DNA of 63,017 nucleotides, filler included, from Hausera hauseri (lineage: Eukaryota), in NCBI GenBank assembly GCA_046269625.1. It is 13 parts of 13 records of this genome, joined end to end, with 100 filler letters (N's around TTAATTAATTAA, not from the genome) between each part and the next. Parts side by side here need not be neighbours in the genome. Positions count along the whole stretch, not along the records: positions 31,891 to 36,207 come from JBJURY010638775.1; 12 more parts are not named here. One strand, given 5' to 3'. The notes below the pieces were generated by a model, which was given only the letters and a program-made list of their open reading frames with translations, was not told the origin of the DNA and did no database searches. The first letter of the stretch is position 1. The number at the start of each line of letters is the position of its first letter. Shown piece by piece: positions 4,054-61,800 of this stretch. A program made the position numbers and the translations under genes.

Positions 4054-4054
4054 G

Positions 4055-15958: not shown

Positions 15959-16058
15959 NNNNNNNNNNNNNNNNNNNNNNNNNNNNNNNNNNNNNNNNNN
16001 NNTTAATTAATTAANNNNNNNNNNNNNNNNNNNNNNNNNNNNNNNNNNNNNNNNNNNN

Positions 16059-17900
16059 GCAGAAATCAACCAACCAAAATACGAATTGTTAAAGAAAGAT
16101 CAAAAATGGGAATGGACGGAGGAGAACCAGACTGCGTTTGATGAAATCAAGAAACGACTGATATCAGCACCAATATTGCGATATCCTGATTTCACCTTAC
16201 CCTTCATTCTTAAAACAGATGCTAGCATCAAAGCCATTAGTTATACATTAGCCCAACAAAATCCGAACGCAACAACCGAACATGTTATCGCTTACGGAGG
16301 ACGCAGTTTAAACAATGCAGGAAGGAAATACTCTACCACTGAATTAGAATTGCTAGCGATTCGAGGTGGATTACGACATTATGAATATTATGTATATGGG
16401 CATAAAATTATAATATTCACCGATCACAAAGCTTTACTCTCATTGAGATCCGACAATCGGCATATATCTAGCCGCCTCCAAAGATGAAAATTAGAACTTT
16501 TGAATTATGATATCGAATACAAATATCGACCAGGAAAAGAAAATACGGATGCTGACGCAATCTCACGCCTACCTTACGAAAGAATAATAGCAACAACTCA
16601 TAAATCCGATGATGAGAGATAAATTATTAAACAAGACAGTCATTAACGAAATGTTACAAGAACAACGACAACTTCAGGTTCGAAATATTGAAGCCTTACA
16701 AAACCAGGACACATTTATTGCGCAAGTTAAATTTATAATCAATGGACATCCAACCGAACAAGTAGCTGATCACATTAAGAAATTCTACGATAAACATAAA
16801 GAACAATTAGAAATAGAACAAGGTATTTTACAAATAAACATTGGAGAACGGAACATTGGCAATTAAAGTAATTATGTTGCAAGAACATGATTCCCACCTA
16901 GCCGGACATCCATCTCTGAATAAAACATTAAAGCGTATAACAGCGAAATATTATTGGCCGCAAATGAATAAATATATAGAACGACCGGTACGGTCATGCA
17001 AAATGTGTGCTACAAGAAAGGACAGAGGATTCAGAACAAAACCTTTTCTAAGAAGCCTTCCAGAAGCACGTAAACCCATGGAAGTCTGCGCAATGGACAT
17101 ATCAGGACCCTTTCCTGTTTTCAAATCGGGATACAAATATATCCTGTCATTCACTGATTATTATTCTCGATATGTTGTTCTCGTACCACTAAAGAATATG
17201 AGTAGTAGCACAGTTGCCGAAGCATTTTTCCACGAGATAGTAGCCGTACTCGGGACACCAAAACAGCTGCTAACTGATCGCGCACCATATTTTATAAGCG
17301 AATTCTTTGAAAAATTAACGAAAATATTACAGTGCAAACACTTACTAACAACATCCTACCATCAACAATGTAACGGTATAGTTAAGAGGATGAATCGTAC
17401 CATTCAGGGTATTCTTTCTACCAAGGTGGCAAATGACAAAAAAGATTGGCATGAACATTTGAAAACTACAGCTTTCGCAATCAATACCACTCCAACCAAA
17501 AGCACCAATCATTCACCCTTTGAGTTAATGTTTGGACGCTTACCTTTATTGCCTTTGGCCACTAAATTGTTACCATTATCATTATTAACCAGCGATCATA
17601 TGGATGAAAAATATCAAATTTTGTTAAAACGACTTCAGTGTTTTCAGCAAAAAGCAAAAGAATTTGAGTGTAAATATAAAGCAGGATATAGAAAACAGTT
17701 TAACAAAAAGGCACGACCCCATACTTACAAGATTGGAGATTATATTATGGTTCACTACCCTGCTGTAAAAAAGGGCAAGTCATTGAAATTAACACGCACA
17801 GGTCAAGGTCCATACAAAGTAGTTGACGTACGTCCACAAACATTTTTTATTCAAAAGGGACATGATAAATATGAAGCTGTTTCAGTTCAACGAGTAACTC
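16059..17900 (+). pseudogene. Gypsy pol 3' half: RT connection/RNase H and integrase
   Basis: FILKTDAS...YSTTELELLAI...FTDHKAL (RNase H); HDSHLAGH...SCKMC (HHCC); AMDISGP, LLTDRA, RMNRTI (DDE core); GPY motif. One stop and frameshifts. Confidence 0.93.
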
Positions 17901-18860
17901 GTGCACCAACGCCGTGTAATGAATATTTAAACAACATTGAATCAGATTCACTTGTAAATGAAGAAAATAAAGTAGCGACCCTGTTTAAAGCTCATAATGC
18001 GTGCACTCAGATGAATTATTTTCCTTGTTTTACTCTCGTTGCTTACTTACTTTTAATAGCGTTTTTATTACCTAACGTGATTGTTAATACATCTACCATG
18101 AAACCTACACATATTGAATTATTACAACGTGCCACGATCGTTAGTATAAACACGCACAAACCTAGTATTTGCTTTAGAACCCACTTACCAATAATATTAC
18201 ATCACACAGTTTAATTTGTTGTTACATCACAACGAAATATCTCCACTGATTGTGTAATTCCTGCCCTGAACAATCAGGCCTGCTGTTCTGCTAATTATGT
18301 CATGACTTATTCATATTATGTAATACTCAAGAGAAACAACACTAAAATCGCTATATGGGAACCAAATCTAATCTTTCACCCACCTACTTATCAAGAAATG
18401 AGTTTCCTAGAAACTTCAGACGTTTTTTCTCGTAGCAGTCTTATCGCTCGATTTCTTCAAACCAACATCAAAATTTCTAACATTAATCTTACCAAAAAAC
18501 CTCCCTATGTGAACTTCCGTACCACAAAACTACTACCCGGTCCCTTTGAAATCAGTATATGGCTTGATCCCATTACAACACACGTACAACAACCACATTA
18601 CTGCTATCTCAAGCGGTATGACACACGTTCGTGTTGCGCACTTTATCCCTACATCTGGTATAGAATTCGTTTGGACGCCTATCAAACTCTAGATAATAGA
18701 CAATCAATTCGAGTACATTCTCATCGTATCCCTATTCTTGTTGCCGTCAAGCCACACATACCTTTCCCAATAATTCTCAAACCACACACTTCCCCACCTT
18801 CCACTAAACAGCTAAAAACAACGAGTTTCAACAATACACCCACCTCTAAGGGTAGGGGAA
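17900..18860 (+). pseudogene. Unknown C-terminal extension in frame with integrase: hydrophobic signal/TM-like stretch followed by a Cys-containing domain
   Basis: Integrase frame continues through MNYFPCFTLVAYLLLIAFLLPNVIV; one TAA at 18212-18214, then the same frame stays open (QACCSANY...CYLKRYDTRSCCALYP) to the PPT. Confidence 0.5.
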
Positions 18861-18862
18861 AT
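18848..18862 (+). promoter_or_regulatory. Polypurine tract
   Basis: AAGGGTAGGGGAAA directly before the TG start of the putative LTR. Confidence 0.75.
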
Positions 18863-20206
18863 TGTGACCGAAATTGTGATCAAAACCGAAATCAAACTAC
18901 AACAAAACATAATCCGAAGCAGTATCCACTGAAATCCAAAGTTCATTTACAAGAGAAACCGTATAAACATGCCTTTTATGGAAAACTTATAAAAGAATTT
19001 CCGATAAGGGTTAAACTAATACCATATATAAACAGAATTGAAATAATACTCGCACAAAATGCAGAGAATCAAAGCATTTTTATAACATGTACAGTAACCC
19101 ACGAGAAAACCAGTTTTAAAACTCGCGAAACTTTTGTGGAAAATTAACCCCAGATAGGAATTATTTAGTAAACATAAAAACTCACGATAATTCTAAACTT
19201 TTAGCTATAAAAACTTTGACTACAGTTGATAGTTATAGGAATATAAGATACAATGAAGAAAATGAGAAATGGAAGAATACAACGCCGACCCCAATGAATA
19301 CAGAGATATATTTCACACAATATTGGTGGATATTTCTCATATTGTTTGTAATAGGAATTATCTCTATTCTTACCGCACTTACAAAGTAATTTCACTGTAA
19401 AAAGACACATAACCAATCTTATTATTCGATTCCTCAAAATAATAAAATCTATACGATAGCAGAATCACATTCTAGTAGAAAGGAATCAATTGAAATGCAA
19501 AACAACATAAACTCAATAATCGAACCAAATGAGAGAGCGCAGAGTATATTTTGTTTCACACAGATATTCATGATATGGATTGTAAAAAATATAGATCTGA
19601 GACTTCCATTGGCTTCAATCATCACCTCATGTGGACCAGTCATGATGTGTTATATAATTTATAAGTTAACGACCAATGAAATAAAAGTAACTAATTCAGT
19701 AAATTGGCCAATCAGATTTATGACTAAAATTAAGTATAAAAACCGGCTCAATATTCAAAAGGATGCCTATGAACTAAAAATGCAACCTGGTCAAGTACCA
19801 AGGAAACAATTTAGTCAAATATCTGATACGAAACCAAGAATACAAATTTATGCCAAACAAACAATCAGAGACCGAATTGGTAACAATAACTTCTCAAAAT
19901 GATGACAATCAAGACCAAGGAATACGAAGATTCAGCACTGCTCAACGTACAATGATATTCGCGTTCTACGATAAAATTATTGTTCATACAGACGGTTCCT
20001 GTGATCATATAAACCATGTAAAGAAAATACCAAATACTCTTAAATACGGCGAAATACGTAACCGAGAAATGTTTCTTTTTAAAGCATTAAATTCCGATAC
20101 AACAATCCGATTACCTAAGTGGACCGAAGGAAATACCGGAATGGTTATAAATGTCACAATAGGTAAACTAATGTTCATTTTTCTATGTGATTACAAACGG
20201 GTCACA
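18863..20206 (+). mobile_element. Putative 3' LTR (about 1.34 kb)
   Basis: Starts TGTGACC after the PPT and ends GGTCACA, a perfect 7-bp terminal inverted repeat. The right boundary rests on this repeat only. Confidence 0.65.
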
Positions 20207-21175: not shown

Positions 21176-24100
21176 AAACCTGCTGATCCAAGTGCGGATG
21201 AAAACGTCTGCGATGGTTTCTGTGTTGGTGCTCCGAAGCGGGACAGCCTCTGCCCATCGCGAGGAACGGTCCATCATTGTGAGGATGAACTGATGACCTT
21301 TTTCTAAGGGTAATGAACCTACAAGGTCAATGTGAACAGATTCGAAACGAGACGTGCAGGGAAATGAAATAGTGGTGTCTTTAGGTGCTAAGTAACTTTG
21401 TATTTTTGGCATGCCACACACTGCCTAACCCATGCCTGCACGTCAGAGTGCATCGACAGCCATATTACTTGGCGTTGTAAGAGTCGAAAAGTGGCCTTGA
21501 CACCGGGATGATGCACCGAATGGACGCTGTGGATTGCTTCTTTTATAAGCGACTCAGAAAGAATGATTTTGGGATTATTATGTTTGGAGGTGTCGAAAGC
21601 CACACCGTCGATGGTTTTGCAAGATTTAAAAGATTTAAGGATGTCAGGAGGTGGCTGGTTTTGCTGAAGTTTGTATTGAGGAAAAATTTGTGTAAAATCA
21701 ATCGAGCTGATTGATCTGGACAAAAGTCAGCTACTAAATTGTCGACTCCGTTTAGATGCTTAATTACAAAAGTAAACGTTGACAAATGCGATATTTGCCT
21801 CTCCTGGAGTGGAGAAGACGATTTCATGATGAGAATTTGAAGCAAGGGCTTGTGGTCCGTTTGTATGATAAAAGTTCGTGCAGTTAGCATATATTTGAAG
21901 TGTTTTACGGCAAGAATCATTGCAAGCAACTCTTGGTCAAAGGTGGAATATCTTTGTTCTTGTGCTGTGAATTTTCGAGGAAAGAATTCAAATGGTTTAC
22001 GGGATCCATTTTTAACTTGATGAAGGACAGCACCTGCAGCTGTTGTGGATGCGTCGGCGGTTAAGAAAAGTTCTGCATTGGAGTCTGGATAGGCCAGGAT
22101 TTCCACAGTTTTTAAATTGTCTTTGAGGCGATTGAAAGCATTGACTAGATTGGCGGTCCATTGAATAGCCTGCTTCTTCTTGCCGGAGCTTAGTGATGCA
22201 AATGGAGCGGTTAGAGTGGAGCAATGTGGAACGTATTTATGAATAAAGTGCAAGGTTCCAAGGAAAGAACGCATCTCTGTTGATGTACGTGGAAGTTGTA
22301 TGTTTTTGAGCTGAGTGATGCGGTCTGGCTGAGGTGAATGTCCGGAGGAGCTAATAACATGTCCTAGGAAGTTAACCTTATATTGAAAGAAAGAGCATTT
22401 GGAGAAATTGATTTGCAAGTTGTTTTAGTGCAGGCGTTGGAAGATCAAACGCAGGTATTTGGAGTGCTGCATTGAGGAAGATGATGCAATTAAAATGTTA
22501 TCAATATAGGGATAAGCGAAGGCTAAACCTGAAAAAACTGTATCGATATGCCTTTGGAAGGTCTGGGAAGCACTACAGAGTCCAAAATGCATAAAGAGGT
22601 ATTCGAAAAGACCGAAAGGCGTAATGACAGCCGTTTTCGGAATATCTGCTGGAGCCACCGGAATTTGGTGGTATGCTTTGTGTAGATCAATGCAGGAAAA
22701 GATGGTTGAACCATGGAGCCTGTGTAGAATATCGTTGATTAATGGTAGAAGGTAGGCATCCATTGTTGTTATGGTGTTAAGTTGGCGGTAATCACCGCAT
22801 GGCCGAAAAGTGCTATCTTTTTTGGAACCACATGCAGTGGTGAAAACCATGGAGATTTTGATCTTCTGATTATGCTTGATTTTTCAAGGTCAAGGAACTC
22901 AGCCTCCACTGCCTGTCTGCGTCGAGGCGATAGCGGACGGACCTTTTGACGTATTGGTCTTTGATATGCTGTTACTATGTTATGAAATGCGGATTGAGGT
23001 GATACAAATGATTTATTCTTTTGCAAGAGACGCGTGCAGGAAGACGAAATGTATTGTTGTAAATCAGAAGGCAAAGATGACAAATTATCCTATGGTGTCG
23101 ATGCATTGTGACTGGATGCAGTTGAGGTATGAGTTATAGGCGAGGTGTTGTGACTGGGTGGTATTTGGTGCAGGATGTTCGTGTTGAAGATGGTGTTGGC
23201 AGCTGTGTTATTAGTAATAGGTGTCACGCAGTTGGAAATATTGCATTTGTCACCGTAATAAAAATTTCTATATAATAAATGATTATAAAAATAATTCATA
23301 TCGGTAGTCGATTGCTTCAGTATCGACTTACTGGACACGATCGCCGGGGTGATCATCGAAATGCTGCTGATTTGATTAAGATTATCTCCGCTCTTTAAGG
23401 AACATTGTTTGCAATCTACAAGTAAATTGTAGTGGGAAAGAAAGTCTGAATCCAATATATGTGTTTGTACATTAGCTATTGTAAATTTCCATGTGAATGT
23501 GTTTGTGAAGTGTGGGAGAGTGAATGTTAATGTGGTGACTCCAAAAATTTGTAGGGGTTCACCGGACGCAGTGAATAATTGCTTTTGTTAAGTGTAATTG
23601 TGTTAAATGTGTTGTGTTGGTGGCAGTAAAGAGATTGCTGCGCCGGTGTCTATAAGAAAGTTTATTTTTTGTTTGTTGGAGTGATGACTGCTGCTTCTAA
23701 CGTGAATACAGAAAAAGAAATGTGCCGGCTATGTTTTTGCAGGTTGTTGCCTTTGCTAGGACTTGCCGTGTGTCCTAGTGGCGAAATTAGTGTTTTGGAG
23801 CTGGTGAGTTTGGCCTACTGTTTTGTGTGAGCTTATTAGTGTTGGTTTTATTGTGTGTGCTGTAGGTACAGCCAGATAGGCATTTTTGTGCTTTAGTGCC
23901 AAATTTTGAGTGGAAGATGCAAACGATATTGCTTGTATTGAAATTAGGGGAATGACATTTACAACGGATGCAGCATTTCTGAGTATTGTTGCCAAATTTT
24001 TTATGATAATAGCAAATTAATGACCGCGCGGGCGAAGGCGACCGTTTTTGACGTGGATTAAATACAGTAGGAGAAGAAGCTCTAGAAAAACCCCGTCGAG

Positions 24101-25210
24101 GTAATGTTAATGCGTTTAGTTTGTCGTTAATGTTGTTGATTGTCTTTTGCAATGTTTCATTTTCTGTGCGTAATTGCGCAATTTGTTGCTGCAGCATTGC
24201 ATTTTGTTGTTGTTGGTCGGTTTTTAATGCTGCAAAAATAATTGGTGCTGCGTATGAATGCAGTACTTCGTATGCCTTGTCTGCCAGTTTGGCTAGCTTG
24301 TTAAGAGCCGTTGAGTCTTCAATCACAATTAACAAGGCTCTTATTTGAAGGGACAATGCATTTAAGAAGTAGCGGCGAAGAAGCTCGGGGCTGTGTTCAG
24401 AGGTTACGCCAAAGTTGTTGAGGTTAGACAAGAATGTGCGTAGGAATTCAGAAGGCTTCTGAAGGCCCATGGCGTTGTCGTTAAAGAACCTTTAAATTAT
24501 TGAATCGATTGAAGGCTCAGTAAGGTTGAGGACGGCATTATAGAGTTGTGTATATAGGTCAGCATGCTGAAGGATATCAATTATATTGGTGATTTTAGTT
24601 TTGATGGAGGCTGGTAAGTGGAAAAAGAGTCTATTGGCTTTGGATAAAGAGTTGACGACGTTTTGCTATTAAAGCCAAAATTGGTGCAGTTTTAGCCACG
24701 TTTGAGTAGAGTTTTGGCTATCGAGAAAGTATTCGGTGCAAGGTGAATGAGTGAGGAGGGTATGTTGTGTAGGGATGTTGGAAGCGCTGTGTTTGGGTAA
24801 GTGAATAATTGGAATTTGTTGTTTAGTGAGTTTGTCCATGGTGTCAGTTGTGGGTTACGAATCCATGCCACCACGGATACGGAAATAAATGGTGAGACAG
24901 ATATGGGTTGAAAAAGATTGTAGAGTTCCGGCGAGGGGTACTAGTTATCCGTTGTGTGTAAGGTAGAAATCAGAAGAGTGGAGTAGGGTGGAAATAAAAG
25001 TGTGAATGGTCGCAGTGTGAAAATGCAATGCTGTGTGTGTTAATGTGTTTGTTGTTGAGCAAAAAGAAAAAGAAATAAGAGTTGGTGTGCCCGGGGGCGT
25101 GTCGTGGTGCTAAAGCAAAAAGCGCCGTCTGACCTACTGGCGCAGGGTGGGCGGCCGGGACCTCAGCCTCGCCGCGACGGGTCCCAAATTTTGGTGTGAC
25201 CGATCTCTTA
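21176..25210 (-). mobile_element. Ty3/Gypsy LTR retrotransposon, CsRn1-like: gag-PR-RT-RH-IN, frameshifted
   Basis: Gag 23787-24900 (KPSEFLR...LLRRYFLNAL; two CxxHx9Cx3C-type knuckles); protease FLIDTGAAISLLP near 23640; RT RPCGDYRQLN...PYIDNIL; RNase H LTADAS...TDHKPL; integrase HSVHHPG...CVACQ...VHIDLVG. Confidence 0.93.
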
Positions 25211-27739: not shown

Positions 27740-30330
27740 TTACTGAAGTATGGCAAAGGAAGTTGGGCCGCACATTAGCTTCTTGAATTTCCCATTTTGT
27801 GTCTTTTTGTTGTCTGTTTCATGCCTTGTGTGAACTGAAGCCTTATATTCCATATCCACTTCCAATATGTAACCCGTTTCTCCATTGGGATCCAGGTCTT
27901 GTATTCTGATGTCTTCAGGATGCTCCACTCATTTGAAATTATCATATGACAATGGAACGCTCATTGCCCAGCCATACACGTTGTTGGCATCCAAGTATGT
28001 TATATATTTGGATGGCTTTTATGGTTCATAATCTGCCATATATTTGTTGTTGGCCTCACTATATCTGAGAATGACTTGAAAGATTTCACCCCGTATTTCT
28101 TTTTCGATCATCAGGCTGATGTTTTAATCTTTCAAGACCTGGAGTCGAACACCTGTATATTCCTGGAGCTGTGAAAAAATGAGCTTGATCCAACTTGTGG
28201 CTCTGAAGCATCACTTCTCTGAAACTCTTGAATACGTCTGTTAGCGGCAGCACATCCGTTTGGAGATATGTCACTATAATCTCCGGTTGTCCTGCATTGG
28301 AATGTCTTCCAGATCTTTTGTTCATGCTTATAATCAGCATCACTAATATGTGTCTGACAGCTTGCCATAAAAATCCTCCTTGTATAGTAATGATATTTCA
28401 TCCAGCGATCCCCATGGTGTTATGTAATAATAAATGAAAACTCCTTTTATTTGACCAAGTCAAATGTACCTGGAAAGAACTTCTTTGTTTTCTTTAGTTC
28501 ATCTGATGGAAAATTCTTTACGAGGCTATCAAAAGATGAACTCATTAAACGAAACTGTTAATGAATCGGAGTATTATGTTTCCCGCATGCTTGGTGAATG
28601 TGACATATTTCTCCTTATTGTTTGAGATGACATCAATATTCCTATAGATATTGCCAAGTTCTATGACTTTGATGTGGAAATCGTTGCCACTGAGACAGTG
28701 GAAGATGAAGGGCACAAATGTTGCAGTCCTAAAGCATAAATTGCATGAATTGAATGCTACACCTCTATATTTACCTGTTACATGGCAGTCATCATGAGAC
28801 TTGTAGTTTTCCATTGTAAATGGTTTGAAACACATGTAACATGTTGTTGCACTTCTCCATTCACCTTTTCCTTTTGATGATATCACCATACTTTTAGGCT
28901 TCATTTTTTCGATCTTATGTGCCGATTCTTCCAGTCTCTCCAAAAAATGATGTGCTGCATTTGAATTCATAAATAAATATGGAACCTCGTCCATTCGCTT
29001 TGCGTACATGCAAAAGGATTACGGCTAATTACGTTTGTATGCTGTCGTATTTTTTTGTTGAGGATTTGGACTGCAACGATGAATTGGATTAAGGATAGCC
29101 TAAAAGTCACAATATTCGACAATTGGCACTTTATGAATTTTCTCATATTCTTTGAATTTAATATAATCTTTTTTGTAGAATTTCGTTCTGATGCAATGAT
29201 TGCTGTTGCAATACATTTTTTGTTCTTCAAGCCTCTGCACAGCCAGATTACCGCTGTAGTAGGATAAGCATCGTTTGCAGATTTCAGTTTTGGTAGTATG
29301 CTTTGTTATTTGGGATCTCATTAGACTTTCAAAGTTTTTTGTCCAAACAAAATGTCTCTTTTCACCATCGTCTAGCAGGAGCAGATCCCTATGATCACCT
29401 AATTCCACTTTTCACACTTTTATAGGATACAATTTATTCGTTTTTTCCACTCCAAAGATATTCATGGACATCTGGTTCACTTGTTCAAATCTTTCGATTC
29501 ATGTTTTGTAATTAAAATCGTAATTATGTTGAATATCTTGATATATTGAAACACGTGAAGCATGCTTTTGATCCTTTATGACTGCGAATTTTGAAAGAAT
29601 AAATATTTGAAGCATATGTTTTTGTCATTTTGAACATTGACACATGCCTCTTTCAGTGCAATCCATTTCAAAAGCTTTATATAATAGCTTCCTCGCATCG
29701 GGGAGAACTTGTGCACATGCACAATCAATTTATTCATTTGTGCAAGAGTCCAGCCGCTCTACTTATTCTGGCTTTCATCAGCTTCACGTATTAGTTTTGC
29801 ATGTTCCTCATGCAAACATTCTGATATATTGTTGGCTTCTAATATTGGCATGTTCTTCGTTTTGAAAGCCCTATTTGATTCTTCGTCATCAACATTAGTA
29901 AATATGGACTCTAATATTAGATTGGCTTTGACTGCTTTAAGCTCAATCAAGTTATCGTGTAGAAATCTAGCAGTTTCAATCTTTGATTAATCCAGAAAAT
30001 CATGAAGTGTAGTTCGCCCTGTTGCAACTATGACATATCGTCTCACTTTTGTTTTGAATACATGATTCTCTGGATTTCGGAACCTTTGCCATTTTGATGA
30101 AGCAATGGGATTGTTTGTGATCCATTTTAATCCCGTGTGAACAACTGGTGCTGAGGTTGTTACAGGATTTGATACATGTTGAGAAATTATATCAGTATGT
30201 TCATTAAAAATCATCTTCTTTGACTTGGATGTGAAACCATACAAATGAGCTTTATGATCATCACAAAACTGCTGCTAATCTGATCTGCTCACAATTTCAC
30301 ATCTTGGACAGTCTGTGGAATCTGTATTCA
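27740..30330 (-). pseudogene. Protein-primed family B DNA polymerase of a Maverick/Polinton, disrupted and 3'-truncated
   Basis: Motifs in order: KANLILES..AFKTKN; CKRCLSY; EYCDF (Exo I); DDCHVTGKYRGVAFNSCNL; FHCLSGNDFH; LRFINS; YLQTDVLPLTDVFKSFR; ANNKYM; YLDANNVYGWAMS (Pol motif A); GYILEVDMEY. Confidence 0.9.
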
Positions 30331-31430: not shown

Positions 31431-32659
31431 CTATGTACCTTCTCCCCACTAACCTCTTCGAGTCGATATTATTCGAAAACCACTCGATCTATTTAAATTC
31501 TAATTGCACACTTGTATAGTGTACCGTTTTTCTAATGGGTTGCACCCGGTGCCATGTGCTAATCATAAATATTGAAATTGTTGAAAAACCTATATTGATT
31601 TGAGCCCATTTGCACATGTGCACCTTCACTGTACTGTGCGCAAAACGATGTGCACTAATGTGTACTACAGATTGGCACTTAGCCCTATCGATTAGATCAA
31701 TACTGCACTGTGCAACGATCAATATGTGCAAAGTGCAAAAGTGTCATGGCAACTGTGCATAAAGGCACGTCGCCATTCACGTGCCGATCGNNNNNNNNNN
31801 NNNNNNNNNNNNNNNNNNNNNNNNNNNNNNNNNNTTAATTAATTAANNNNNNNNNNNNNNNNNNNNNNNNNNNNNNNNNNNNNNNNNNNNGACGACGAAC
31901 TTATACTTACACAGGTTGTGATCCAATATCCCGAAACTACATTATTACCAATCGAAAATCCAATGATTATTCCGGAAATGAATATTCCCCCAGGTTCCAT
32001 AGTATACGGCAAACCCCCCAAATGAACCCAAACTACAAATGACTGATTCAGCACCTAATGAAGTATGGAATGCCTTATGAAAATATGATTCACTACCATT
32101 AAATAGACGAGTAGAATGCGTACCATTACTCCTGCCACTAACAAAGGACGACGTATTCTGCTTTTCAACAGCAAGAAAGTTACTTAAAACTCTTGTAAGA
32201 GAATTAAGAAGAAAACATAGGCGAAAACAACCATATATATTAAGTAGAGATTAAAACCAATAAGCGGGAAAAAGTAATCAAAGTAACAGCAGGAATGTTC
32301 ATTAAATTTACGGATCTCAAAAGAAAAGTATTAGATGAATTAGATCTAGATTACGGACTCCTTACCGGAAAGATTCATCAGATTACTATGGAATTTGGCA
32401 CTAAGAAAAAAGAAGGAAGACCAAGAAAGTGTGATTTTAACCCAATAAACGATGATGAAGAAAATCCCAAAGAAGAAAAATCAGAAAGGCAAAGAAAGAA
32501 AAGATCTTTGTTGAGAAAACGTAGGGAACAACGAGAAATGTTAGAAGATATATTATACGACAATTTCCAGAAATTTACTATTAGTAATGATGAAAATAAA
32601 CAAACAAAAATCCTGTTACGGGAACTTCGGATCAAAGTGAAACAGATGTACCAAAGGTA

Positions 32660-33050
32660 ATATTGACAACTGATAAACTCCTAGAACAATTAATTAAGAA
32701 AACTAATCGAAATCTACTCAAGAAGATACCAACAATTACAATAATTCCATTACAATCCATAAGAGAAACTGCGAGAAATTTCTAATCGCAAATTACGAGA
32801 TTGCTACAGAAGTATAAGCTGAAAAGAGGTTTAAATAAAGCATTGACACGATTATTAAAGGAATGTGATCAAAACCGATTGTTAATGGCACCAAGATGCA
32901 TAGTGGTTAGCTTCAAAAACCAAACAGAGATCGATGCCAAGTTACTCCATATAGTAAGAGATTTAGTCCATCATATGCATAAGTCAACAAAAGAATGGGT
33001 AACCAAACAAGGAGGTTGGGATGAAATACTCAAGAAATTTAACCCCACTA
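32660..33050 (+). pseudogene. Bcl-2-like domain upstream of Env in a Gypsy-type element (degenerate copy)
   Basis: BH2-like HMHKSTKEWVTKQGGWDEILKKFNP (W...GGW at 32996-33019); BH3-like LQSIRETARNF; in frame with the signal sequence and AYDC. Confidence 0.7.
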
Positions 33051-33069
33051 CATTAATATACCACAAATA

Positions 33070-36000
33070 TACGAATATCTCAGATTGGGTAGTACAAATT
33101 ATTCACCTGCTACTATACTTGATAGCTGTGAGTATTCTGAAAACCACAAAAGCGTTAGAAGCCTATGATTGTTCCAAACCGGAAATAACAGCCCGGCTTT
33201 CACTAGTGGATGTAGGCAAATGTTAAAACGCGAATCCGATATCTGTAAAGAAAGAAGGTCCTTACTATTACAGCCTGTATCAAAGAATCAGTTATCAACA
33301 AATGCCAGTAAAGGAATGTCAACTTAATAAAGTAGTATTCGCTCATAACTGAGGCCATAATTCATGGAATTCAGAAATTATTTTACCAGTGCTACCTAAG
33401 CCCGTGACAATAACAGTTGAAAATTGTCGAAAAGCCACTGATTCAATTCATGTAGGCCTCCAACAGCCAGTACAGGCAGGCATAGGAAAACTAGTTTATT
33501 CACGTATAGTTACAGCAGGACAAATATGGCCCGGATATGGTGGAGCTTGTAAAGGAGAAAGTATGACGATAAATAGACAGAAAGAATCCGCTGCAGTACA
33601 AATAGAAGATTTTACCGTCACCATAAAGGAATATGAAGTAAATTTCGATGCAATCACAGGAAAAATGTTAACTGCACCATCCTGTACATATTCCGATGGA
33701 GTAAGTACCTTAGGAGAATCCACCCTAGTTTGGGAAAAACGGTCGTAATATGTCCATTAGCTTTCCTTAAACAAGTATCTATGTACGAAATACAAGGTGA
33801 TTTATATTACGAAGATGAATACCAAGAACTTGTACATAACCATAATATAAGTTTACCTACCCCACGAACATTAAAACACACCATTTCCCTAAAAGTTTTA
33901 ATGTCATCCAGTGACAAAGATGGAATCGTATTGGCACGTAAAGGAGCCGTATCTACCTGTGGATCAAATGCAGTTTACTCCACATCATACGAGGATCTAT
34001 TCGTAATCAACATAACTATTGCAAATGCAGGAAAGCTACCAACCGAAGATATAAAGTAATACCTATATACGAATAACAAGATAGATTATATATCATATCG
34101 AATTGTACAATATTATGGCATTGAGAGATTGTAAAATCACTCAAAAACTGAATCAGCATGACTTGATACTAGCTAGGGAATTCCCAGAAGATATTGCCTT
34201 AATTATGGGATATCGCTCGGAACATTTGGTAGAGTACAAGGTGAAATACTCCGCGTGTATCAATGCCCTCCAATAGAGGTAACTCCAATAACAACCCTAA
34301 AAGAAAATTGTACAAATGAATTAATGGTTCATTATAACGATAAAAACATAATTAAAACCGGATACGTGGACCCTGTTACTCGAAAGTTATTGTTACCTGT
34401 GGTGCCGCGGACTCGAGCGTCACCACGGTCGAACTGCATCGGGACAGCATCGTTCGAAAGAATTTTGATGGTTTTACGGAGATTTGCTCAAAAAATGTGT
34501 CCAACCTACTCCAAAATTCTTTCAATACAAAAATTCTCGATGAAATTCGTTGTTTCAAATCAAGCTGCCTGTGATTTGAGCCGTGTCGTGTGCATATCAA
34601 ACCATCAGTCAATTTTAAAAATACAAAGACGTGTACTACTCAACTAGCTGCACCATTAACACAATTTGAAAGAAATGTTCGGTAATATCCGACAAATTAC
34701 CGCAACTCGTTGACCACTTCTGGCAGTTTGTTTAATCATGGTATCAGACACAATGATATTTGACCTATTAATCGATTTTGATAGTCGAGACACCAAAACC
34801 TTAATGGTGGTGAATCATTTATAATTAAATTCTAATCCTGCAATAATGCCTTTTTGAAAAATTTAGAGTTTGATATGATAAATTTTAAAACTTTTTACAG
34901 TTGTGCTAAATAATTCGAATTAAAAAATATTGTTGGATAAAAAGAGAAGAAAAATTTCAAGAATCGAAACTAAATACGAAGCCATTCAAAAATCAGCAGT
35001 GGTAAAGCCACGTAGAAACAGATTGGCGGTGGATTTCGAAAAATTTACAGGAAAGCCTTTATATTTTATCCACATTGATTTCAAGATTTCTCTACCTATA
35101 ATTAAGTGGCTAATGATCAGAAAATAGAGCAGTTCAATTTGAATTGAACCTAGACTGAGTCACTCAACGAAACGTGTTTTACCATTTTTAAATTCCGCGT
35201 AACTTCCATTTACAATCTTATGACTATGATTTATCTGTAAGTGAATATGGGATTCAAATTTCTTTGGTGTGAACAGTTGTCTCAATTTATATATAATTAC
35301 AGTAAAATCGGATCTTCAACAACTGCAATGTTTATTTAAACTAGTTTTCAATGAACAAGAGAGACACGTCCAACGAATTTTAAACTTGACAACAGGAAAA
35401 ATTACGAATTTGAAAAAAAAATTTCTGAAACCAAAAGCCATGAAAAGTAATTTTTGGTAAGGTCTACGCCGACAGGACCAATGAAGGTAAAACATTACTT
35501 TTTTGAATACAGAGTAATATTGTTTTTTACATGGAATTAAAATGCAGAGAAATCAACAAAATAGAAATTGATAATTAATAATTACAGTTGTTGGTTGATA
35601 CAGTTTGAATAAATGATTGTTGACAGGTTTTCTGATTTTGTTGCTTGCTGGATTAATTTGTACAATTTGGATTTACATTACCTACTGAAATCAGTATTGC
35701 ACCATGTTATAAAGACTTCTATCCAGCCTTCAAGCTTAACAATGGATGATTGACCAAGACACGCCAACCAACCATGATGAACATCCCACAGACGATTAAA
35801 TTATTATCGTTGGATAAAGGTATGCAATTTAAAGTAAATATAGAACTTCCCACCAGTGGATTATATTTCTTGAAAGACCTGAAAGCAGTAAGAAAACAGG
35901 TATTATTTCAGAATGTCCGAAAAAAAGTTATCACAGAATTTGTATATACTGTTACAAAAGGATCAAATTGTGTACCTAATTATGGAATATTACTGCCAAT

Positions 36001-36207
36001 CGACCACTTAGAGAAAACAGCTGAAAAGGTCCTTTTTGACTTCTAAAATAGATTCCTTATTTTTGGTCAAGTTATATATGGAGTCTTCGGTATATCTGTT
36101 ATAATTACTACCGTAATGGTCATATTAAGACAAATAGGAGCTGCAAGAAATATAAAGAAAGTACGTGGTTGTACATGGTAAATTATGCTGGGATGCTTTC
36201 CTTCAAT
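33070..36207 (+). pseudogene. Chuvirus-like envelope glycoprotein, disrupted and split by a solo LTR
   Basis: Signal-like WVVQIIHLLLYLIAVSILKTTKA then LEAYDCSKP..LSLVDVGKC; G.CKG; CTNELMV..YVDPVTRKL; C-terminal RFLIFGQVIYGVFGISVIITTVMVIL..GCTW. Collinear with the intact copy at 59326-61170. Confidence 0.85.
34398..35677. mobile_element. Solo LTR-like insertion (1,280 bp) with 5-bp TSD TTACC
   Basis: Ends TGT...ACA; TTACC at 34393-34397 and 35678-35682; removing it restores Env as ...VTRKLLLPTEISIAPC. Confidence 0.85.
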
Positions 36208-36307: not shown

Positions 36308-39300
36308 GTAATAGAACAATCCACACCGACGATATTAATATCAGACATGCACGGGTTAAAATGTATTAGAAAGGATATGTCATCACGCTGCGATGTAGTT
36401 ATGTATACCACTAACTACGAAGCATTCTTTGTAGCAGAAACAGAAATCGATATGAAAACGTACGATTTAAAAACACAAGATGTGCGGATCGAGGATTACC
36501 TCGAAAACCGAGACGATTATTTATATTACAAAGGGCAGATCGGAATAGCGGAAATATACTACAAAATGATAAAAAATGACTGCAGATTATATACTGAAGT
36601 CATGAGAACCAAACTGGCTTTAATTTACACCAATCCAGAATTGGCATCACCGATTATACCAATGAAAGACGGTGTTTTCCGACAGGTTACCGGAGAAGTC
36701 CTATTAACCTAAGAATGCGAAATAAAAGACGTGCCGATCAACGTAGACGAAAAGAGATGTATGCAAGAATTGCCGGTCAATTACGAGAATATGCCAAGGC
36801 TAGCAGTGCTACTCACCAGAGTATTACTGGAAAATTCGACTGAACCGACAATACTGAAGCAATGCAAGACGAGTCTGGGGGAACCAATATTTAGACGCAG
36901 TGGAGCCGACTGGATAAGCCTATTAAATAGAGGTACGGCTGCAGCCCCTAGTAATCTAACGGCGACAAATCTAATGAAAGGATTATCGGATGATAAATTC
37001 GAATATACAACTAATAAAGGAATTTATAGGCCAAAAGACATAAAAACTTTTAGGCAATTTTTAGCATTTTCGCGACTGCGGACGTATGAACTGAATCGGG
37101 CCATGTCAATGGTCATGGATGACACCCGCTTTCAAGCGAAATGGGAATCGTTACTTGGTGCTAATCACTATCAAACATTTGAGGAAGATTTCTGATTTTC
37201 AAACAAGCCACATCTGGATTCTTAGCCATCTAGTTTTTAGTCCAGCCATCATCAACGGCTATGAAATATTCACATTAACATGATTTTCCTGAAAAATTTT
37301 AACTGCAATTATATCACCCTTCAGGAAAATGCTAAAGGTCTATGAGGAAAATCGATGGAAAAATGACGTAAAACGCCATGTGGGGTACTATAATTGCAAA
37401 CGACGAGGAAAGCCCTCGATTTTGTATAGACGTAAAAATAAGAAAACAGTAATACGAAAGGATGATTCAGATGATGACGTGCCTAAGGGAGTAGAAGTGA
37501 GTTTCAGAATGAAGATGAACAAGATATACTCAATGTTTATCTCGCCATTACCCATCATGCCACCAACAGCACCGATATATGAAGACGGCGACTACAAATA
37601 AATCGTATCATGTAAGTCCAAAATCTATCAAAAGCCCATTAATTATGAAGATTCTTATGAAAAAACAAAACAATACGGAGTACTACGGAAAATGAATGTT
37701 ATCAACCGAAGACGAACAGAAAACGATCACGAAATATTGTACTTAAAAAGGATACCACGTCACATAGAATCGAAATCAGCGATCTTGAAAAACCCGAAAC
37801 TGTTTGATCTCGGATTCACTACCTTAGGAACTGCTCATTGACAGTCGCGTCAGTGAGATAGCAAATAATTTATACCCGAACGGAGAATTAAGACAGTTAA
37901 GAGAAAATATCCTCTCAGCACCATAAATAACAATAAATGGACACAGAGTCTCTATTATGAAACAGTCAAAGATAGCTACGGAACAGTAGCAGAAGGGAGA
38001 CCTTTCGCGAAAATACACATCAAAGATTAAAAAGTGTAATCATTAATTGACAGAGGATTATAGAAGTCTTTTATAAAATACGAATCAATACCAACCACAT
38101 TGCGAGAACAATTATGCCCACCGCTATCGTTGGATCTTGGTAGCATAGAAGCATTTGGACAAATATAGAAGTCAAAATTTAAATGGACTCCCACTGTTAT
38201 TATGATGAGTCAAGCACTTCAACATGAATTTGCGATAATGGGCCAGTTAACAGATGATGTAGTGCTAGGTTGTTATATATTGAAACAGATACCAGGCATA
38301 GCAATCGATATGCATAACGGAAACCTAATTAAGCTCGAACGAATGAAAAGAAAAAACGTAATAAAGGAAAGGAAATCGGGCGAAGTATGGATTCCGGTAG
38401 ATAAAGACATTCCTCTCAGAATCGAAATGATAATCATCGCAAAAATTCGATAGGACAAAAATCTGTCGGTATACTTCGAGCCTCAAGAGAATATCGATCC
38501 AAACTTTATCTTTAGCAATATTCTATGTAGAGTAGTGACGGGACGAATACCAATCAGATTAGTGAATAATGCACCAATTTCCGTAAGATTGTATGCTAAC
38601 ACTACTCTGGGTCATACTCACAGAGCATCGGCGGTAACAGTAGAGGAAAAACTATACAAATGTGCTGAATTTCCACCTCACGTTGAAACCAAATTTTTTC
38701 CTGAGGCGTATGGAAAGTTCTACGAATTACTATGTAAATACCGTTTAATAATCGCACAAAATGAGGAAAACATAGGCAGAGCAAAACCTTGATATTAACA
38801 ATCTCATTAAGAGAAAACCCGGTTCGAGTGATGAAATTGGTTTAGAAGAACAGAAAATGCCCAAATGTTACCCACCTCCCCATTCATTAAGACCATAAAT
38901 AACTAAAGAGGTAGAGCGAATGTTAAAGTCCGATATAATTTGACCAAGTTACTGATCATGGTACTTACCTATTCTTATGATTAAAAAGAAAGGAACTACA
39001 AAACATCGATTTTGTATAGACTATCGGGCATTAAACACGATGATAATGAAAGACTCGTTTCCATTACCGTCAGTAAAGAAAGCTTTAGATAGACTATCAG
39101 GAGCAAAATGGTTTACCACTCTCGATTTACAATCGGGATACTGGCAAGTGGAAATCAAAGAATAAGATCGATATAAGATAGCATTTAAAACACACGATGG
39201 CGTATATGAATTTAATGTTATGCCCTTCGGCATCACCACCGGATAAGCTATTTTTACTAGAATGATATATAAAATACTTATGGGATTTGAGCATGACTTC

Positions 39301-41358
39301 ACATACCTAGATGACGTAATAATAGCATCAAAAACAGATGAAGAGCACTTAAAGGACATTGAAGATACACTCATGCAATTGGAACAAGCACGGGGCACAG
39401 ATGGGCACAGAACGCAGTGTCATACCTCGGACACATAGTTGGAGAAGGAGGATCAAAACCGGATAAATCCCTGCTAAATAAAATATCTGATTGTATGGAA
39501 CCACAGAATCAAAAAGAATTAAGACATTGGTTAGGACTATGTGTGTTTTATGCCACTTACGTGCCGGACAATTCAAAAATTAATGCGCCACTATATTGTC
39601 TACTCAAAAGAGAAACTAAATGGAGATGGATGGAAGTGGAACAAAAAACATTCAACGAAATGAAGAAAATTTTGACAAGCGAACCAGTTTTAAGATACCC
39701 TGATTTTAACCTACAATTCATCATTAAAACAGATGCAAGTAAAGAAGGTATAGGATACGAATTAGCTCAGAAACGAGAAGGCGAAGAACTAGAACATCCA
39801 GTAGCCTATGGAGGAAGCTCGTTAACAAAAGCAGAAAAAAATTACTTGGTTACCGAATTAGAAACGTTAGCCGTAAAGGAAGCACTATGACACTTTAATG
39901 TCTATGTCTATAAACAAAAGATTATAATAGTGACCGACCACAAAGCAGTTACGACATTGAAAGGACGAGCTAATAATCCAACATGTAAATTAAACCGTTG
40001 GATCGAGGAAATTTCACGATATAATATCGAATTCCAATATAAACCGGGTAACAAACACGTCGACGCCGACGCACTATCAAGGTTAAGGACAAAAACGAGT
40101 GCGATCACCATAATAAAAAACCCACAACTCGAACAAATAATTGAACAAAGAACTCTAATACTAGATAAATTACAGCAGAACAAGCTAATGTTATTCAGCA
40201 AATTATCGAGTTTGTACAAAATGACAAAATGCCAAAAGGACGACAATTGAAAAAGCATCTATAGAAACACGGACATAAATATCATGCATCGAACCAAGAT
40301 AATATCCTATATTTGCGAGCGAAAAGGAAGAAGACTAATAGTTATTCCCAATGGATTGTTCATCGAAGTACTCATGGCCGAACATGACTCATATTTAGTC
40401 GGACATATGTCTTGGAAGAAGACATTGGAAAGGATATTAAATAAATACTACTGGCCAAGTATCTATATTGATGTAAAGAAATGAGTAGGAGCGTGCAAAG
40501 TTTGCGCGACAAAACAGAAGAAAACAAAAGAGTACGTGGCAGAACTAAAACCCAAAAACGTACCAGATAGGCCCATGCAAGCCATGTCTATGGATAATGT
40601 AGAAACCTTGCCGAAAACTCACAAAAATAACAGATATATCCCAACATGCGTGGATCGACTAACGCACTTCGTTGAATTGGTGGCACTATTAGATCAAAAG
40701 GTAGAAACTTTAGCCAACGCAGTGGTAAGGAAAATTATCTCCAGATACGAACCACCAAAACAAATCCTAACGGATAGAGGAAGGAACTTCACAAGTAAAT
40801 TATTCGAAAAAATAAATAAGATATTTGAAATTGAACGATTAACCACAACCGTGAACCACCCCCTATGTAATGGAATGGTCGAGCGAATGAACAAAACAGT
40901 CATTCGTATACTATGAACAGTAGTAGCCAAAAATCAGAAGGATTGGGACGAATTCCTAGAAGGGACACAGTTCGCAATTAATACAATCCCACATCCAGCA
41001 ACAGGCTTTACACCGTTCTTTATGATGTACGGGCGAGAGGCAATCTTATCCACTGATCTAGGCGTGACACAGTAAAAAAGTAACCTCGCCGATCTACAGC
41101 AAAATTTTGCCGAAGTCTTACAGACAAGATTGCAAAAGTGTTGCAAAGTTGCATAAATATTATCACTCAAATACCAGGAACAATTTAAAAAACAATATGA
41201 TAAAAAGACTAAACCCCACAATCTGGAAAAGGGAAATTTGGTTTATATACATTACCCAGTCGCGAAAAAAGGTACGTCTTTGAAATTAACACGTGCTGGA
41301 AGAGGACCATATGAAATCATCCGCACAAGGCCAAGCACGGTCTATATTAATAAAAACG
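36308..41358 (+). mobile_element. Gypsy-type element with order Env(C-half)-PTAP linker-PR-RT-RNase H-IN, degenerate
   Basis: Env: YLENRDDYL..NDCRLYTEVMRTKLALIYTNP..QVTGEVL..CMQELPV..GIY; PTAP at 37563-37574; decayed protease (VVLGCYIL); RT RFCIDYRALN..LDLQSGYWQ..YLDD at 39304; RNase H IKTDAS..TDHKAV; integrase EHDSYLVGH..LTDRG..NGMVERMN..GPY. Confidence 0.92.
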
Positions 41359-52590: not shown

Positions 52591-54789
52591 CTTGTTTCAT
52601 TGTTCCAGCATTTGTCTAAGTATAAATATCTAGTCCATGCATAACTTACAATTTCTCAGGTTTGTGTGTTCTTTCTAAAGCGCATTCTCCACTCTCTGAT
52701 AACTGAGAGCTGAATTTGCGAACTCTATTGGGAATAGTGTCACTAAATACTTTACTAGTGAGAACAGCCCATCATATCAACAGATCTATTTTCCTGCGTA
52801 TTATAAAGATGTTCTTGTTCTTGTTTGATCTCCACATCGTCAGCTCTTCTGGATGAGCCCTTATAAGGGCTGTAGTCCTAGGAAGGACTCTGGAGTAGTT
52901 GCGCTGAGCATTCCTGCAGTCCCAGTGGTGTCTAGGAGGGTGGTCCGAGGTTTCTCAGGCTTTAGTGCAATGCTTGACCTCCTAGAAGTGATCCATTTCA
53001 ACCGGGGACCATGACGATAATCCCAACGTTGGCCAGAATTTCTTGTTTCCAGGACGCACTGCGTGGAAGTATTGAGAGGTCTTGGCCAGTAATGGTCCTT
53101 ACCCTGGCTAGATCGCGGATCGATCTCAGTCTTAGCGTCCCATTATAAAGATGTGTCCTGTTTTCCACTATTGCTACCTTTGTTCTTGCTTCATTCATTG
53201 CTTCTTGTCTGCGATAGTATTTTCTGTTCTTCTGCTACTTCTTTTATCTCTGAGGATACTTACGATTGTGGTATGTTTAGTAAAGTATAGACGTATTCTT
53301 CATTTACATAAGTTTTTCTTTCACTTCACTCGTTGTATGACCATTCTGAATTGTAAGTGATCCTTCGTTCTTAATGACACATTTTCCTCCCATCATGTTT
53401 ATAATTTCATAAAGTATTTTCATGTTGGTGTTGTATGCTGCTGTCTCTGCCTCTTCTGCTAATGTATCATTTACTGTCGTTTATCCGAATAGCATATTTT
53501 CTTTATTTCTTATTTGTGTATTTTTGTATGATGTGTTTTTCATTGGGTCTTCTGTTTTCCTATCACGAGAACACGTAATCCAGTAGACCTTCTGGTTTGT
53601 TCCATCTGTAACCACTCTGTTTTGGTCACTAAAGTGAATACACTTTTTTCCGTTTACATCACCTATACTTTCACTGTCCATTTTGTCCTCACTGTGGTCC
53701 TTGTTCTCCACACAATGAGACATCTTGTTTGAAGGCTGCATCCACTACTTCCTGCACACGCTCGGATCATCTTTCTTGCGAGTCTTCCTCTTCATTTTCT
53801 GCTGGTTCATTGCATGCTATTATAGCTAGCTTATCACGTGCTGAGTTGAACTTCCTACATATAAATGCTTTTTTTTTTTAATAAGTGATCCCCTCTATAT
53901 GAGTTTCAAAAACAGCTTGAACAGTACCCGATCTTGGGAACTTCTTGCATTCTTACAAGGTCCAATTGTATCCGTTCATTTCTAAATCTAATGCAGTTAG
54001 TTTTTCTGCTTGAATTTGTGTCCCAATATTCCAACTTCCAACTTGTAAGAATGTTTATGTGATACTGCATTATGTATAGTATCAATTACTTTGTTGTTAC
54101 AGTGGGTTCCCACTGTCGAGTTTTTGACTCCCTGGTCCTGACTTTCACAAGCGCCGTTCATACAATCAATTCATTTTCATCAACATTTATGGAATTTATC
54201 TCAGCGGACTCTGTAGCGGTTTGATTTATTACATACAGTTTGCTATACGGTCTATTAGTCCCCAGTTACAGCACGATAATGGAAATGCAGTGTACACATT
54301 TTTTTCCCGTTCCTAGAGTGCGTAATGAAAATTAATTAATGATAATAAAAATAACCATAACAGGATATTATCATTGCTGTTGTTCGTGGTGGTGGTAGTG
54401 TTGGCGTTTATGTTAATATTTATAATAAATATTCCGGCCGNNNNNNNNNNNNNNNNNNNNNNNNNNNNNNNNNNNNNNNNNNNNTTAATTAATTAANNNN
54501 NNNNNNNNNNNNNNNNNNNNNNNNNNNNNNNNNNNNNNNNCAACATTGGAACAATAGTTCCTCTTTCAGAGCCTCGCGTGAAAGATTGTGCTTCATGACT
54601 TTATCCAGAAGTTTCTCAATTGCCTCGAAGTAAGCCGCCGGTTCTGCTCCATTCATTTAGCATTTGAGTGCTTTTTTCAGATTTTCGCACAGCGTTGAGG
54701 ATCGGGCGAAAGCCTTCCGTAGTCTCTTTTGATATCCCGTTATTTTCGCATCTACTATCTCGTATCTTTCTTGTGCTTCTTTCGCCAAG

Positions 54790-58806: not shown

Positions 58807-61800
58807 TTATTATTGGCAGGAACAGACGGTACCCCGGAATCGGTGGACATAGATCCATTATTAAGAACATTATTGGCTAGATTACATACGTCATTCGCCT
58901 CGTTTGACATGCAGACAATAATACCCGATGAATTATTTACAACGCTACACAACCATATGCTACGAATAAGTAGGCAATTTTATGAAAATTTAGAGGAGGA
59001 ACGAATAAATGAGCTACACGAGATGGATATCTTAGAAAAGATGTTCGCAACTGGAATTACACGTGAAAAAGCTCGGACGGCGATATCGTATCTATTATAT
59101 AAAATAATAGTGATAAACCATCAAACGCAAAACTTAGAAGAAATAGAACGGAATATACGAACGGCTGTGAAAATTTTGAAAGATACATTAGGTAATTGGG
59201 CTCAATGTAGAGGTGGGTGGCTAAGTAGTCTGATGACTAATGTAGTAAGGTCTGGAGACCGAGAAAGACCCATACAGACGCCACTTCCGACACAACCAGG
59301 TATCGCTAGGGCAGGTATGACAGGCATGTCAATGATGGAGATCATTCAAATTCTCCTAATAACATCACTGCTTATGCCAAAAGCGGTAGGTATAGTAGCG
59401 TATGACTGCTCTAAACCCAGCGAAGGTCAAAAGTACTCTTTGGTAGATTTGGAGAAATGCCCAGAAGCTGACCCAGAACAATTAACAACGACAGGTGGCC
59501 TGACATACTGGGTATACCAAGAGTCTGAGTTTATAAAAGCGAAAGTCAGGGAATGTTACGTAAAAAGATCATTTTTCTTGTTTAATTGTGCTTATTATTC
59601 GGGAAATACAGCCATAATTGAGCCTACGACACCTTTTGAGCCGATTATTATATCACGAGCAGAGTGTCAAGACGCTTTTAAGATTGGCATTATTACGATC
59701 CAAAACGCGCATATACCGGCAGTACGAAATCGAATAAAATATACCAGAATATACCGGGCAGGAAGAATAGATAAAACTGCAGAAGGTTCGTGTAAAGGAG
59801 TGGACTATGACGTAGGAGGCACTATTGCGCCTAGAACGGTAGCTATCGAAGATTATCAAATCCAGTTAAAGGAGTATGAAGTGTTGTTCGACTCACAAAC
59901 AAAATTGATGACAACTATGAGTGAGTGCGAGTACGATAACGGAGAATGTGATACTGGGGAGTCAAAAATGACATGGGAAACCCTAGCAAGCAAATGTCAA
60001 TTGACGTTATTAAAGGAAGGAAAATTTAATAAAACGGTAGGAAAATCAGCGGAGAAAGAAGCAGCAACGTATAAAGAGGGAACCAAGGAAGTAAAGATGA
60101 CGGAGGTAGCTACGATTGTGTATTCAGAAAACCCAGAAGATATGATGCGATTTAAGATCACGGGAATAGCAACTAAGTGTAATGAAGAAGTAACGAAAAC
60201 TAATTACAAGGGTATCTTTTTATCGAGAAAAGAAATACCTGGTGCAAAGACCAAGATAGATAAGAGAGATATAAAATTGACGCAATATTTCGACAATAAA
60301 ATCGATTTTCTGATCAATTATGTAAGAAAAGAAATTAGGGGTTTATATCGCGAAATAATAATGAACGAGTGCAAGTTGAATTACGAGATAATGCGCAATA
60401 AGATGGCGCTGGTGATAACAAATCCGGATATGGTAGCGCCAGTGTTACCTTTTGGTGATGGAGTTATTGGAAGAGTAATGGGCGAGATTTTAATAACAGT
60501 AGAATGTAAGAAGGTGGAAGTATCGATTAGACCTACGGAAGAATGTACAATGGAATTACCTGTTGTTTACCATTCGGAAGCACGATATGTTATGCCAGTG
60601 ACTAGGATACTTCTCGATGTTAATGTAAAGCCCACTCTGTTATACAATTGTACTTTTAATATGTCACCAATGTTTAAGATCGATAACGATAAATGGATAA
60701 GGATGCCGAAAAGAGAGCCAGTGCCTAAACCGGCGACGTTGAGTCTGATTAACTTACAAAGAAATCAGAAGTTTGAACCACTAACAGGAATATCCCAGGG
60801 AGGAATTTATACCCAACAAAATTTGGAGGACTATCGACGGATGTTATTGTTCCCACAACAAAGACAGCGAGTAATAACCGAATTGACGAGGAGAGTAATG
60901 TGGGATGGCGAAGGATCACCACAATGGGAAAACCTGATGGGTAAAGACTATTTAAAGAAGGTAACGAAAAGTATAATGGAAAAGATATGGGGAAAGTTCT
61001 TATATTTTGGTCAAGCAGCCTCCGGCTTTCTAGCGATATATTTTATTATCAGCGCCCTACGAACGGTATTTACGGCCCTAGGCAAAGCATATGGAATACA
61101 TGCTGCAGTAGGATGCTCGTGGAAGATTTTAATAGCGGTAATACCGGCGGTAGCAAGTTGCTTCTTGGCAAACCACGATGCACGATGGAAGAGGAAAATA
61201 TTAAAAAGGAGAGACATGAAAGAATCCTTGTATAGTATACCCAATGATAATGATGCGGAATATAGCCAAGTGAAGGAAAAGAAACGAGTACCCAATATTA
61301 AACACTTAATGCTGAGGAAACGGAAATCTAAGTACAGACAGAGGCTAATAACAGACCTGCCTCGTCTAGATCCTGTGGATGAATACCATGGACAAGAGTA
61401 TAACGACCAACCGTTGTTAAATCCTTCAGCTCCCCGATATGTAGTACACACAGGACTATACCCTATGCAACAAGTTCAACAGATGAGACAACAGTTGGAT
61501 GAAACTATGATCCCGTATAAACGTGAACCCACATATATTGTCAATGATAAAGATGACCGCCAACCACCGGTAAGACCCGAAATAGAAATAGAAGTGAATG
61601 GATACCCTATGATGGCTTTGTTAGATACTGGGTCAACTACGACGATAATGGGAAGAAGCCAACTACCAAAGGAATTGAAAAGGAAATTGCGACGACCGAC
61701 TACCACATTGGTGAATATAGGAGCATTTGGCACCGAAGAAGAAATTAAAACGGTTCTAGATGCCAAAATTAAGATTGGTGACCAAATTTTGAATCACACC

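Follow-up and report, generated by a model that had tools for sequence, protein, structure and literature searches.

What is the tryptophan-containing motif that stands, followed by a hydrophobic stretch and the residues AYDC, just ahead of an Env-like sequence in a decayed retroelement copy, and does it mark a domain related to the Bcl-2 family? The copy lies in a window (the whole stretch of DNA analysed, 63,017 nucleotides) made up of 13 short contigs joined by N-spacers, and an intact copy is located on a different contig. In our judgement the locus quite probably belongs, as a decayed copy, to an envelope-bearing Ty3/gypsy retroelement of high copy number (likely Burro-type), and the motif forms the BH2 end of a diverged domain, likely Bcl-2-derived, which is kept just ahead of the Env signal peptide.

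Layout of the decayed and the intact copy

The frame starting at 32660, with stops read as X, gives HMHKSTKEWVTKQGGWDEILKKFNP, then a hydrophobic stretch, and EAYDCSKP at 33158. WVTKQGGW falls at 32996 in this frame, and the best 15-residue hydropathy of the stretch (2.31) is at 33092-33136. The statement from which this work started, that a BH2-like motif, a hydrophobic stretch and EAYDC follow each other in one frame on a separate contig, was borne out by the reading of frame and hydropathy (32996-33172). The frame is stop-free between 32786 and 33223; stops were found at 32783, 33224, 33350 and 33746, and frame breaks near 32.6 kb and inside Env. The decayed copy is dead.

Features of the decayed and the intact copy (positions count along the whole window)
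Feature	Position	Strand	Basis or remark
Contig with decayed copy	31891-36207		
Upstream open frame, 138 aa, basic and charged	32244..32660	+	not in frame with the Bcl-2-like domain, the frame being broken near 32.6 kb
Decayed Bcl-2-like helical domain, one stop at 32783	32660..33040	+	9-sequence family profile 13.3 bits; Pfam Bcl-2 E 0.18
BH1-position motif DQNRLL (N-cap residue, basic residue, two hydrophobics)	32867..32884	+	without NWGR Trp or Gly
BH2-like motif WVTKQGGWDEILKKF	32996..33040	+	frame reading, phmmer, six-frame motif count
Internal hydrophobic signal peptide of Env	33092..33157	+	hydropathy and spacing in 9/9 sequences; cleavage and topology inferred
Decayed Env ectodomain, first part (Monjiviricetes-type / gB-like fusion glycoprotein), stops and frame breaks	33158..34413	+	PF24664 E 2.8e-16; tblastn
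Decayed Env resumed after ~1.3 kb interruption, to contig end	35675..36205	+	tblastn with P0002, P0006
Contig with intact copy	58805-63017		one open frame fills the contig (58807-63015)
Intact copy, Bcl-2-like domain	58840..59235	+	Pfam Bcl-2 E 0.0017, below cut-off; BOK alignment; model pLDDT 70-85 across most of core
Intact copy, BH1-position TREKAR	59059	+	
Intact copy, BH2 WAQCRGGW	59197	+	
Intact copy, signal peptide and fusion glycoprotein (Monjiviricetes-type)	59332..61242	+	PF24664 E 1.9e-89
Intact copy, aspartic protease and reverse transcriptase, same frame, cut by contig end	61573..63015	+	RVP E 1.8e-9, RVT_1 E 8.2e-25

The upstream open frame of the decayed copy had no Pfam match and no significant match to P0003, one of the related proteins described below. 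It contains GRPRK at 32415-32429, which we take to be AT-hook-like; a GRP motif of this kind stands shortly 5' of the Bcl-2-like domain both here and in P0003 (~residue 585). The interruption of ~1.3 kb in the decayed Env (about 34400-35670) is unmatched elsewhere in the window, and clear terminal repeats are absent from it.

In the intact copy Env, protease (PR) and reverse transcriptase (RT) share one frame according to Pfam, with a spacer of ~245 residues between PR and RT; Gag itself is off the contigs of the window. Burro-type elements have a dUTPase-like region between PR and RT; no Pfam dUTPase match was obtained for 61870-62250. A further copy of this kind of element, the third in the window and likewise decayed, covers 36308-41358 (+) and consists of the second half of Env and pieces of protease, RT, RNase H and integrase; its contig begins inside Env, and the pre-Env domain lies outside it.

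The pre-Env domain and its relation to the Bcl-2 family

The intact pre-Env region was searched against 1.84 billion representatives, which yielded 6 proteins at E <=0.001, and a profile search added 2. These eight element proteins (P0003-P0010), singletons from ENA or JGI, carry the whole domain or part of it. Because the query was the intact copy including its signal and Env start, the relatives lean towards that copy. Searches of viral_contigs and metagenome_contigs gave no related loci. P0003 (1130 aa) holds in one frame a Gag-like start, a zinc knuckle, a weak ubiquitin match (E 0.031), the domain and Env. The order domain, linker, hydrophobic stretch, AYDC and fusion glycoprotein is common to both window copies and the relatives. 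In all nine covering sequences (seven relatives reaching the Env start and both window copies) W-x4-[GQ]G[WL] ends 47-62 residues before AYDC and the hydrophobic stretch ends 6-11 residues before it; the strict form W-x4-GGW is present in six of the nine sequences covering the motif. The flanks of the two window copies share little identity, as had been stated: the BLASTP alignment begins no earlier than the signal peptide (33% identity in 221 columns), and the global identity of the pre-Env domain is 22%.

Could the W-x4-GGW of the decayed copy have arisen by chance or convergence, within a leader region that is unrelated? Pairwise comparison beyond the motif would agree with this, Smith-Waterman scores between the decayed copy and seven relatives being reached by 5 to 92 of 500 shuffles, and so would the part upstream of BH2 alone, which was not significant with a 9-sequence profile (160/2000 shuffles), and the ESM Atlas, which had no usable match for either copy. 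With hhalign the pre-Env piece alone had a probability of 0.3. A 7-sequence profile made without the decayed copy gave it 6.7 bits, reached by 20/2000 free and 312/2000 motif-fixed shuffles; the same leave-one-out treatment gave 34-76 bits for the other members. Against the chance explanation, the 9-sequence profile (P0009 and P0010 added, decayed copy excluded) gave 13.3 bits, a score above all 2000 free shuffles and reached by 20 of 2000 motif-fixed ones, and the copy is collinear with this profile over ~125 residues. DQNRLL lies in register, 43 residues before the BH2 Trp, where the BH1 position of the family ranges from 43 to 46 (438/20000 shuffles); it must be noted that this test was post hoc, the motif having been picked after the alignment was seen. 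W-x4-GGW occurs twice in the six frames of the whole window, once per copy, versus 0.047 expected, and [AV][YF]DC also occurs twice, each time downstream of one W-x4-GGW. The chance of finding the motif in the 16-position window that the family uses before AYDC is ~1e-5 for the strict and 1.5e-4 for the relaxed form, and the same Env family follows directly downstream. We regard a chance motif as very improbable, an explanation already largely refuted. The comparisons support the view that the pre-Env region is a real family-level domain. This part of the original prediction stands, on account of the eight relatives and of a profile that recognises the decayed copy without having been built from it.

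Pfam Bcl-2 (PF00452) was matched by six of the ten alignment members (best E 7.7e-5), all members being below the gathering cut-off of 31.4 bits: the best relative reached 23.6 bits, the intact copy 19.3 bits (profile positions 10-100) and the decayed copy 12.8 bits (72-100). In three family-profile searches against the PDB the best 60 matches listed for each were Bcl-2-family proteins (best E 0.0019, 0.00039 and 0.0065); here we take the PDB names '5-HL' and 'SJCHGC06286' to denote Bcl-2 homologues. Foldseek had 38 Bcl-2-family proteins among the 41 matches listed, and a single-sequence fold of the intact domain (pLDDT 51) had no match. When single copies were compared with the PDB by phmmer, Bcl-2-family proteins made up 6 of the 7 matches of the decayed copy, all on the BH2 stretch (E 0.11-0.84), and one of the three matches of the intact copy (BOK, E 0.21, 95 residues). 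The decayed copy had been described as closer to canonical BH2 than the intact one, which is correct for the motif alone, but not for the whole domain, where the intact copy matches Bcl-2 better. The family-profile matches show a weak but specific homology, at the profile level, to solved Bcl-2 proteins. Of the two findings that would speak against a shared domain, lack of alignment beyond the GGW tripeptide and lack of any score against Bcl-2 profiles, we have half: pairwise alignment beyond the motif was not significant, yet both copies score weakly against Pfam Bcl-2, and the family profiles also match Bcl-2 structures.

It is instructive to compare the domain with cellular and viral Bcl-2 proteins (Bcl-xL, BOK, A1/Bfl-1, African swine fever virus A179L). 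The W-x4-GGW of BH2, the helix pattern, the BH1-to-BH2 spacing and a hydrophobic helix downstream are shared. The differences are the scores below the Pfam cut-off, the replacement of both Trp and Gly of the NWGR motif (each in 9/9 sequences, in a register taken from the BOK alignment) and the lack of a clear BH3. Lys or Arg is kept at the basic NWGR position in 9/9, and BOK itself has Lys there in the alignment. No conserved BH3 Gly-Asp was seen by eye in the alignment, and the Pfam matches begin at profile position 6 or later. The domain also differs in sitting inside a polyprotein. A hydrophobic stretch follows the linker in 9/9, a candidate for the C-terminal anchor of the family, but it is the signal peptide of Env.

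Burro-type elements, copy number and constraint

The feature is not new: a BCL2-like motif before an in-frame env has already been published for Burro. The Burro / GYPSM1 elements of planarians are LTR retrotransposons, gypsy-like and of giant size (Grohme et al. 2018, cited in PMC6431247). According to the available text of PMC6431247, they have the order Ubi/SUMO - BCL2 - env - PR with env in frame between gag and pol, their env matches mononegavirus glycoproteins, they also carry BIR domains, and a host-meddling role is called worthy of experimental confirmation; the account in that text is without residue-level BH motifs and without a functional test. The supplements of Grohme et al. 2018 may show BH motifs already. 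The window copies resemble Burro in having a BCL2-like motif directly before a mononegavirus-type env, a mark of Burro-type gypsy elements, and env in frame between gag and pol (Env-PR-RT in the intact copy; zinc knuckle, Bcl-2-like domain and Env in P0003). The Ubi/SUMO-like domain upstream of BCL2 may have a counterpart in the weak ubiquitin match of P0003, and none was found in the upstream frame of the decayed copy. Very high copy number is a further likeness, and decayed fragments of Burro are described as well (Dugesia japonica; available text of PMC6431247). Contigs of 4.2-4.3 kb give no view of giant size or LTRs, and the MATH/BIR/ankyrin cargo and the host of Burro are likewise not visible in the window. 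The decayed copy differs in representing a distant lineage, its Env being 33% identical to that of the intact copy.

The GAG-ENV-POL order is reported for Nematoda, Bryozoa and Platyhelminthes in the parts of PMC13524379 that were available. In the same parts, Smed_errantivirus_1-6 (Platyhelminthes_C1a, gB-type Env) have a gene order like that of the window copies and share Env motifs with the intact copy, as judged by eye and word search. Their pairwise Env identity (27-64%, median 33.5%) is like the 33-36% between the window copies, and 'Bcl' has no occurrence in the main text. The Env words YQES (4/4) and CDTGES (1/1) of the intact copy were found only in Schmidtea mediterranea rows of supplement 3 of PMC13524379, so the host is likely a flatworm. 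Troyka was also considered and dropped, as it has no env or Bcl-2 feature in the available text of PMC12440569, where Anakin is described as a BEL/Pao element with a chuviral env.

Contigs aligned to 31891-34400 at >=85% identity numbered 7633, 551, 94 and 77 in runs X1-X4. Most of the 7633 contigs of X1 are 90-95% alike to the decayed copy, numbers which reflect depth, not copy number. The domain region belongs to the family and is no private insertion, because the X1-X4 contigs cover it as they cover Env; among the variants listed there is no indel in 32660-33600. The decayed copy belongs to a large lineage in which this region is present, and which is distant from that of the intact copy. 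The family of the decayed copy is present in runs of four coded organisms, and words of the intact copy (58807-63017) in runs of at least 2 (shares 0.61 and 0.33), thus both families are shared between coded organisms.

Selection, the remaining part of the original prediction, is read from conservation. The dN/dS values between copies are saturated or rest on too few sites, with third-position identities of 0.35 and 0.42 and four-fold sites alike in 1/9 and 11/22. At sites where >=90% of the X1 depth differs from the decayed copy, 16/17 differences fall in codon positions 1-2 (P 0.01), and 7/7 inside the domain (P 0.06). This tally was made from 40 of 458 rows, of which 22 were in frame and 5 were dropped for lower share (3 of them at third positions), and for this reason it can do no more than hint at constraint within the family. 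Retention across lineages is the better argument: where Env identity between lineages has fallen to about one third, the Bcl-2-like domain is still there with the same spacing and still joined to the Env signal peptide, thus it is likely an old, constrained component and not cargo of recent date.

Possible roles of the domain, and other features of the window

Protein downstream of an internal signal helix enters the ER lumen, and a tail anchor fixes cellular Bcl-2 proteins in the membrane. In active elements the signal helix would direct Env into the ER lumen, with cleavage by signal peptidase immediately ahead of the AYDC region. The product on the Gag side, which has the Bcl-2-like domain at its end, would remain tethered through the signal helix to the cytosolic side of the ER, and this tethering may be likened to the tail anchor of cellular Bcl-2 proteins. 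The signal peptide is accordingly given a predicted second role, that of membrane anchor of the upstream domain. There the domain could dampen cell death or ER-stress signalling of the host for as long as the element is active in expression, a function that we propose tentatively. We place it ahead of a purely structural budding anchor, and this ahead of an innate-signalling decoy. The decayed copy itself makes no such protein.

The structural alternative says that the Bcl-2 fold was repurposed as a matrix-like helical spacer, which ties the Gag precursor to the ER membrane via the Env signal helix, for budding, and has no role in cell death. It would suit a domain fixed between Gag and signal peptide in one polyprotein, in which the BH2 turn and the helix pattern are kept, the NWGR glycine is lost in 9/9 and BH3 Gly-Asp was not seen by eye in the alignment; the lost motif is described as pivotal for BH3 recognition in the available text of PMC7719400. 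However, the same text reports that BH3-peptide binding persists in viral Bcl-2 proteins whose BH1 is altered, the basic NWGR residue is kept in 9/9, BOK itself having Lys there, and the BIR domains of Burro elements (PMC6431247, available text) fit anti-death cargo. We consider a purely structural role rather unlikely. Some poxviral Bcl-2-fold proteins block innate immune signalling rather than apoptosis, and the domain might act like these. Its degenerate BH1 and the lack of a clear BH3 are in line with such a role, as is its presence in a virus-like element beside ubiquitin-like modules (P0003; Burro, available text of PMC6431247). But these poxviral proteins did not stand out in the sequence or fold searches, and BH2 is well kept in the element domain. 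The poxviral innate-signalling proteins are not known to have BH2. A signalling role appears improbable to us.

A more far-reaching reading may also be considered. In deeply split lineages the Env signal peptide might take on a second task, as tail anchor for a Bcl-2-fold protein that was captured and had its groove rebuilt without the NWGR glycine. Once signal peptidase has cut, this protein would be located at the ER and would either help the host cell to survive (perhaps the stem cell, in planarians) or serve as a budding anchor. The retroelement would then possess a viral-type Bcl-2 that functions, as a long-standing component of its particle programme and not as passing cargo. We think this full scenario doubtful. 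A working viral-type Bcl-2 in a retroelement, if true, would be notable. Our literature search, which covered few subscription papers, found no functional test of such a domain. The available text of PMC11209288, a review, presents viral Bcl-2 as a trait of large dsDNA viruses, and the word 'retrotransposon' does not occur there.

Several other features of the window were noted. An open frame at 58251-58704 (-) had no Pfam match; by eye it resembles the C-terminal part of a UBR-type ubiquitin ligase, which we take as a provisional assignment. The fragments 2824-4696 (-) and 28086-29411 (-) resemble Polinton/Maverick genes, and one of them has a weak Endonuclease_7 match (E 1.2e-4). A gypsy pol fragment at 16011-19147 (+) contains integrase; after it come a hydrophobic stretch and a frame of 310 codons that includes cysteine and matches no Pfam family, possibly an env-like tail. 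Three related decayed gypsy-like elements without env were recognised by RT matches (5013-9069, 21388-24491 and 54657-57403). The contig at 9277-15958 is filled by a satellite array of 15/30-base units, which yields many repetitive open frames.
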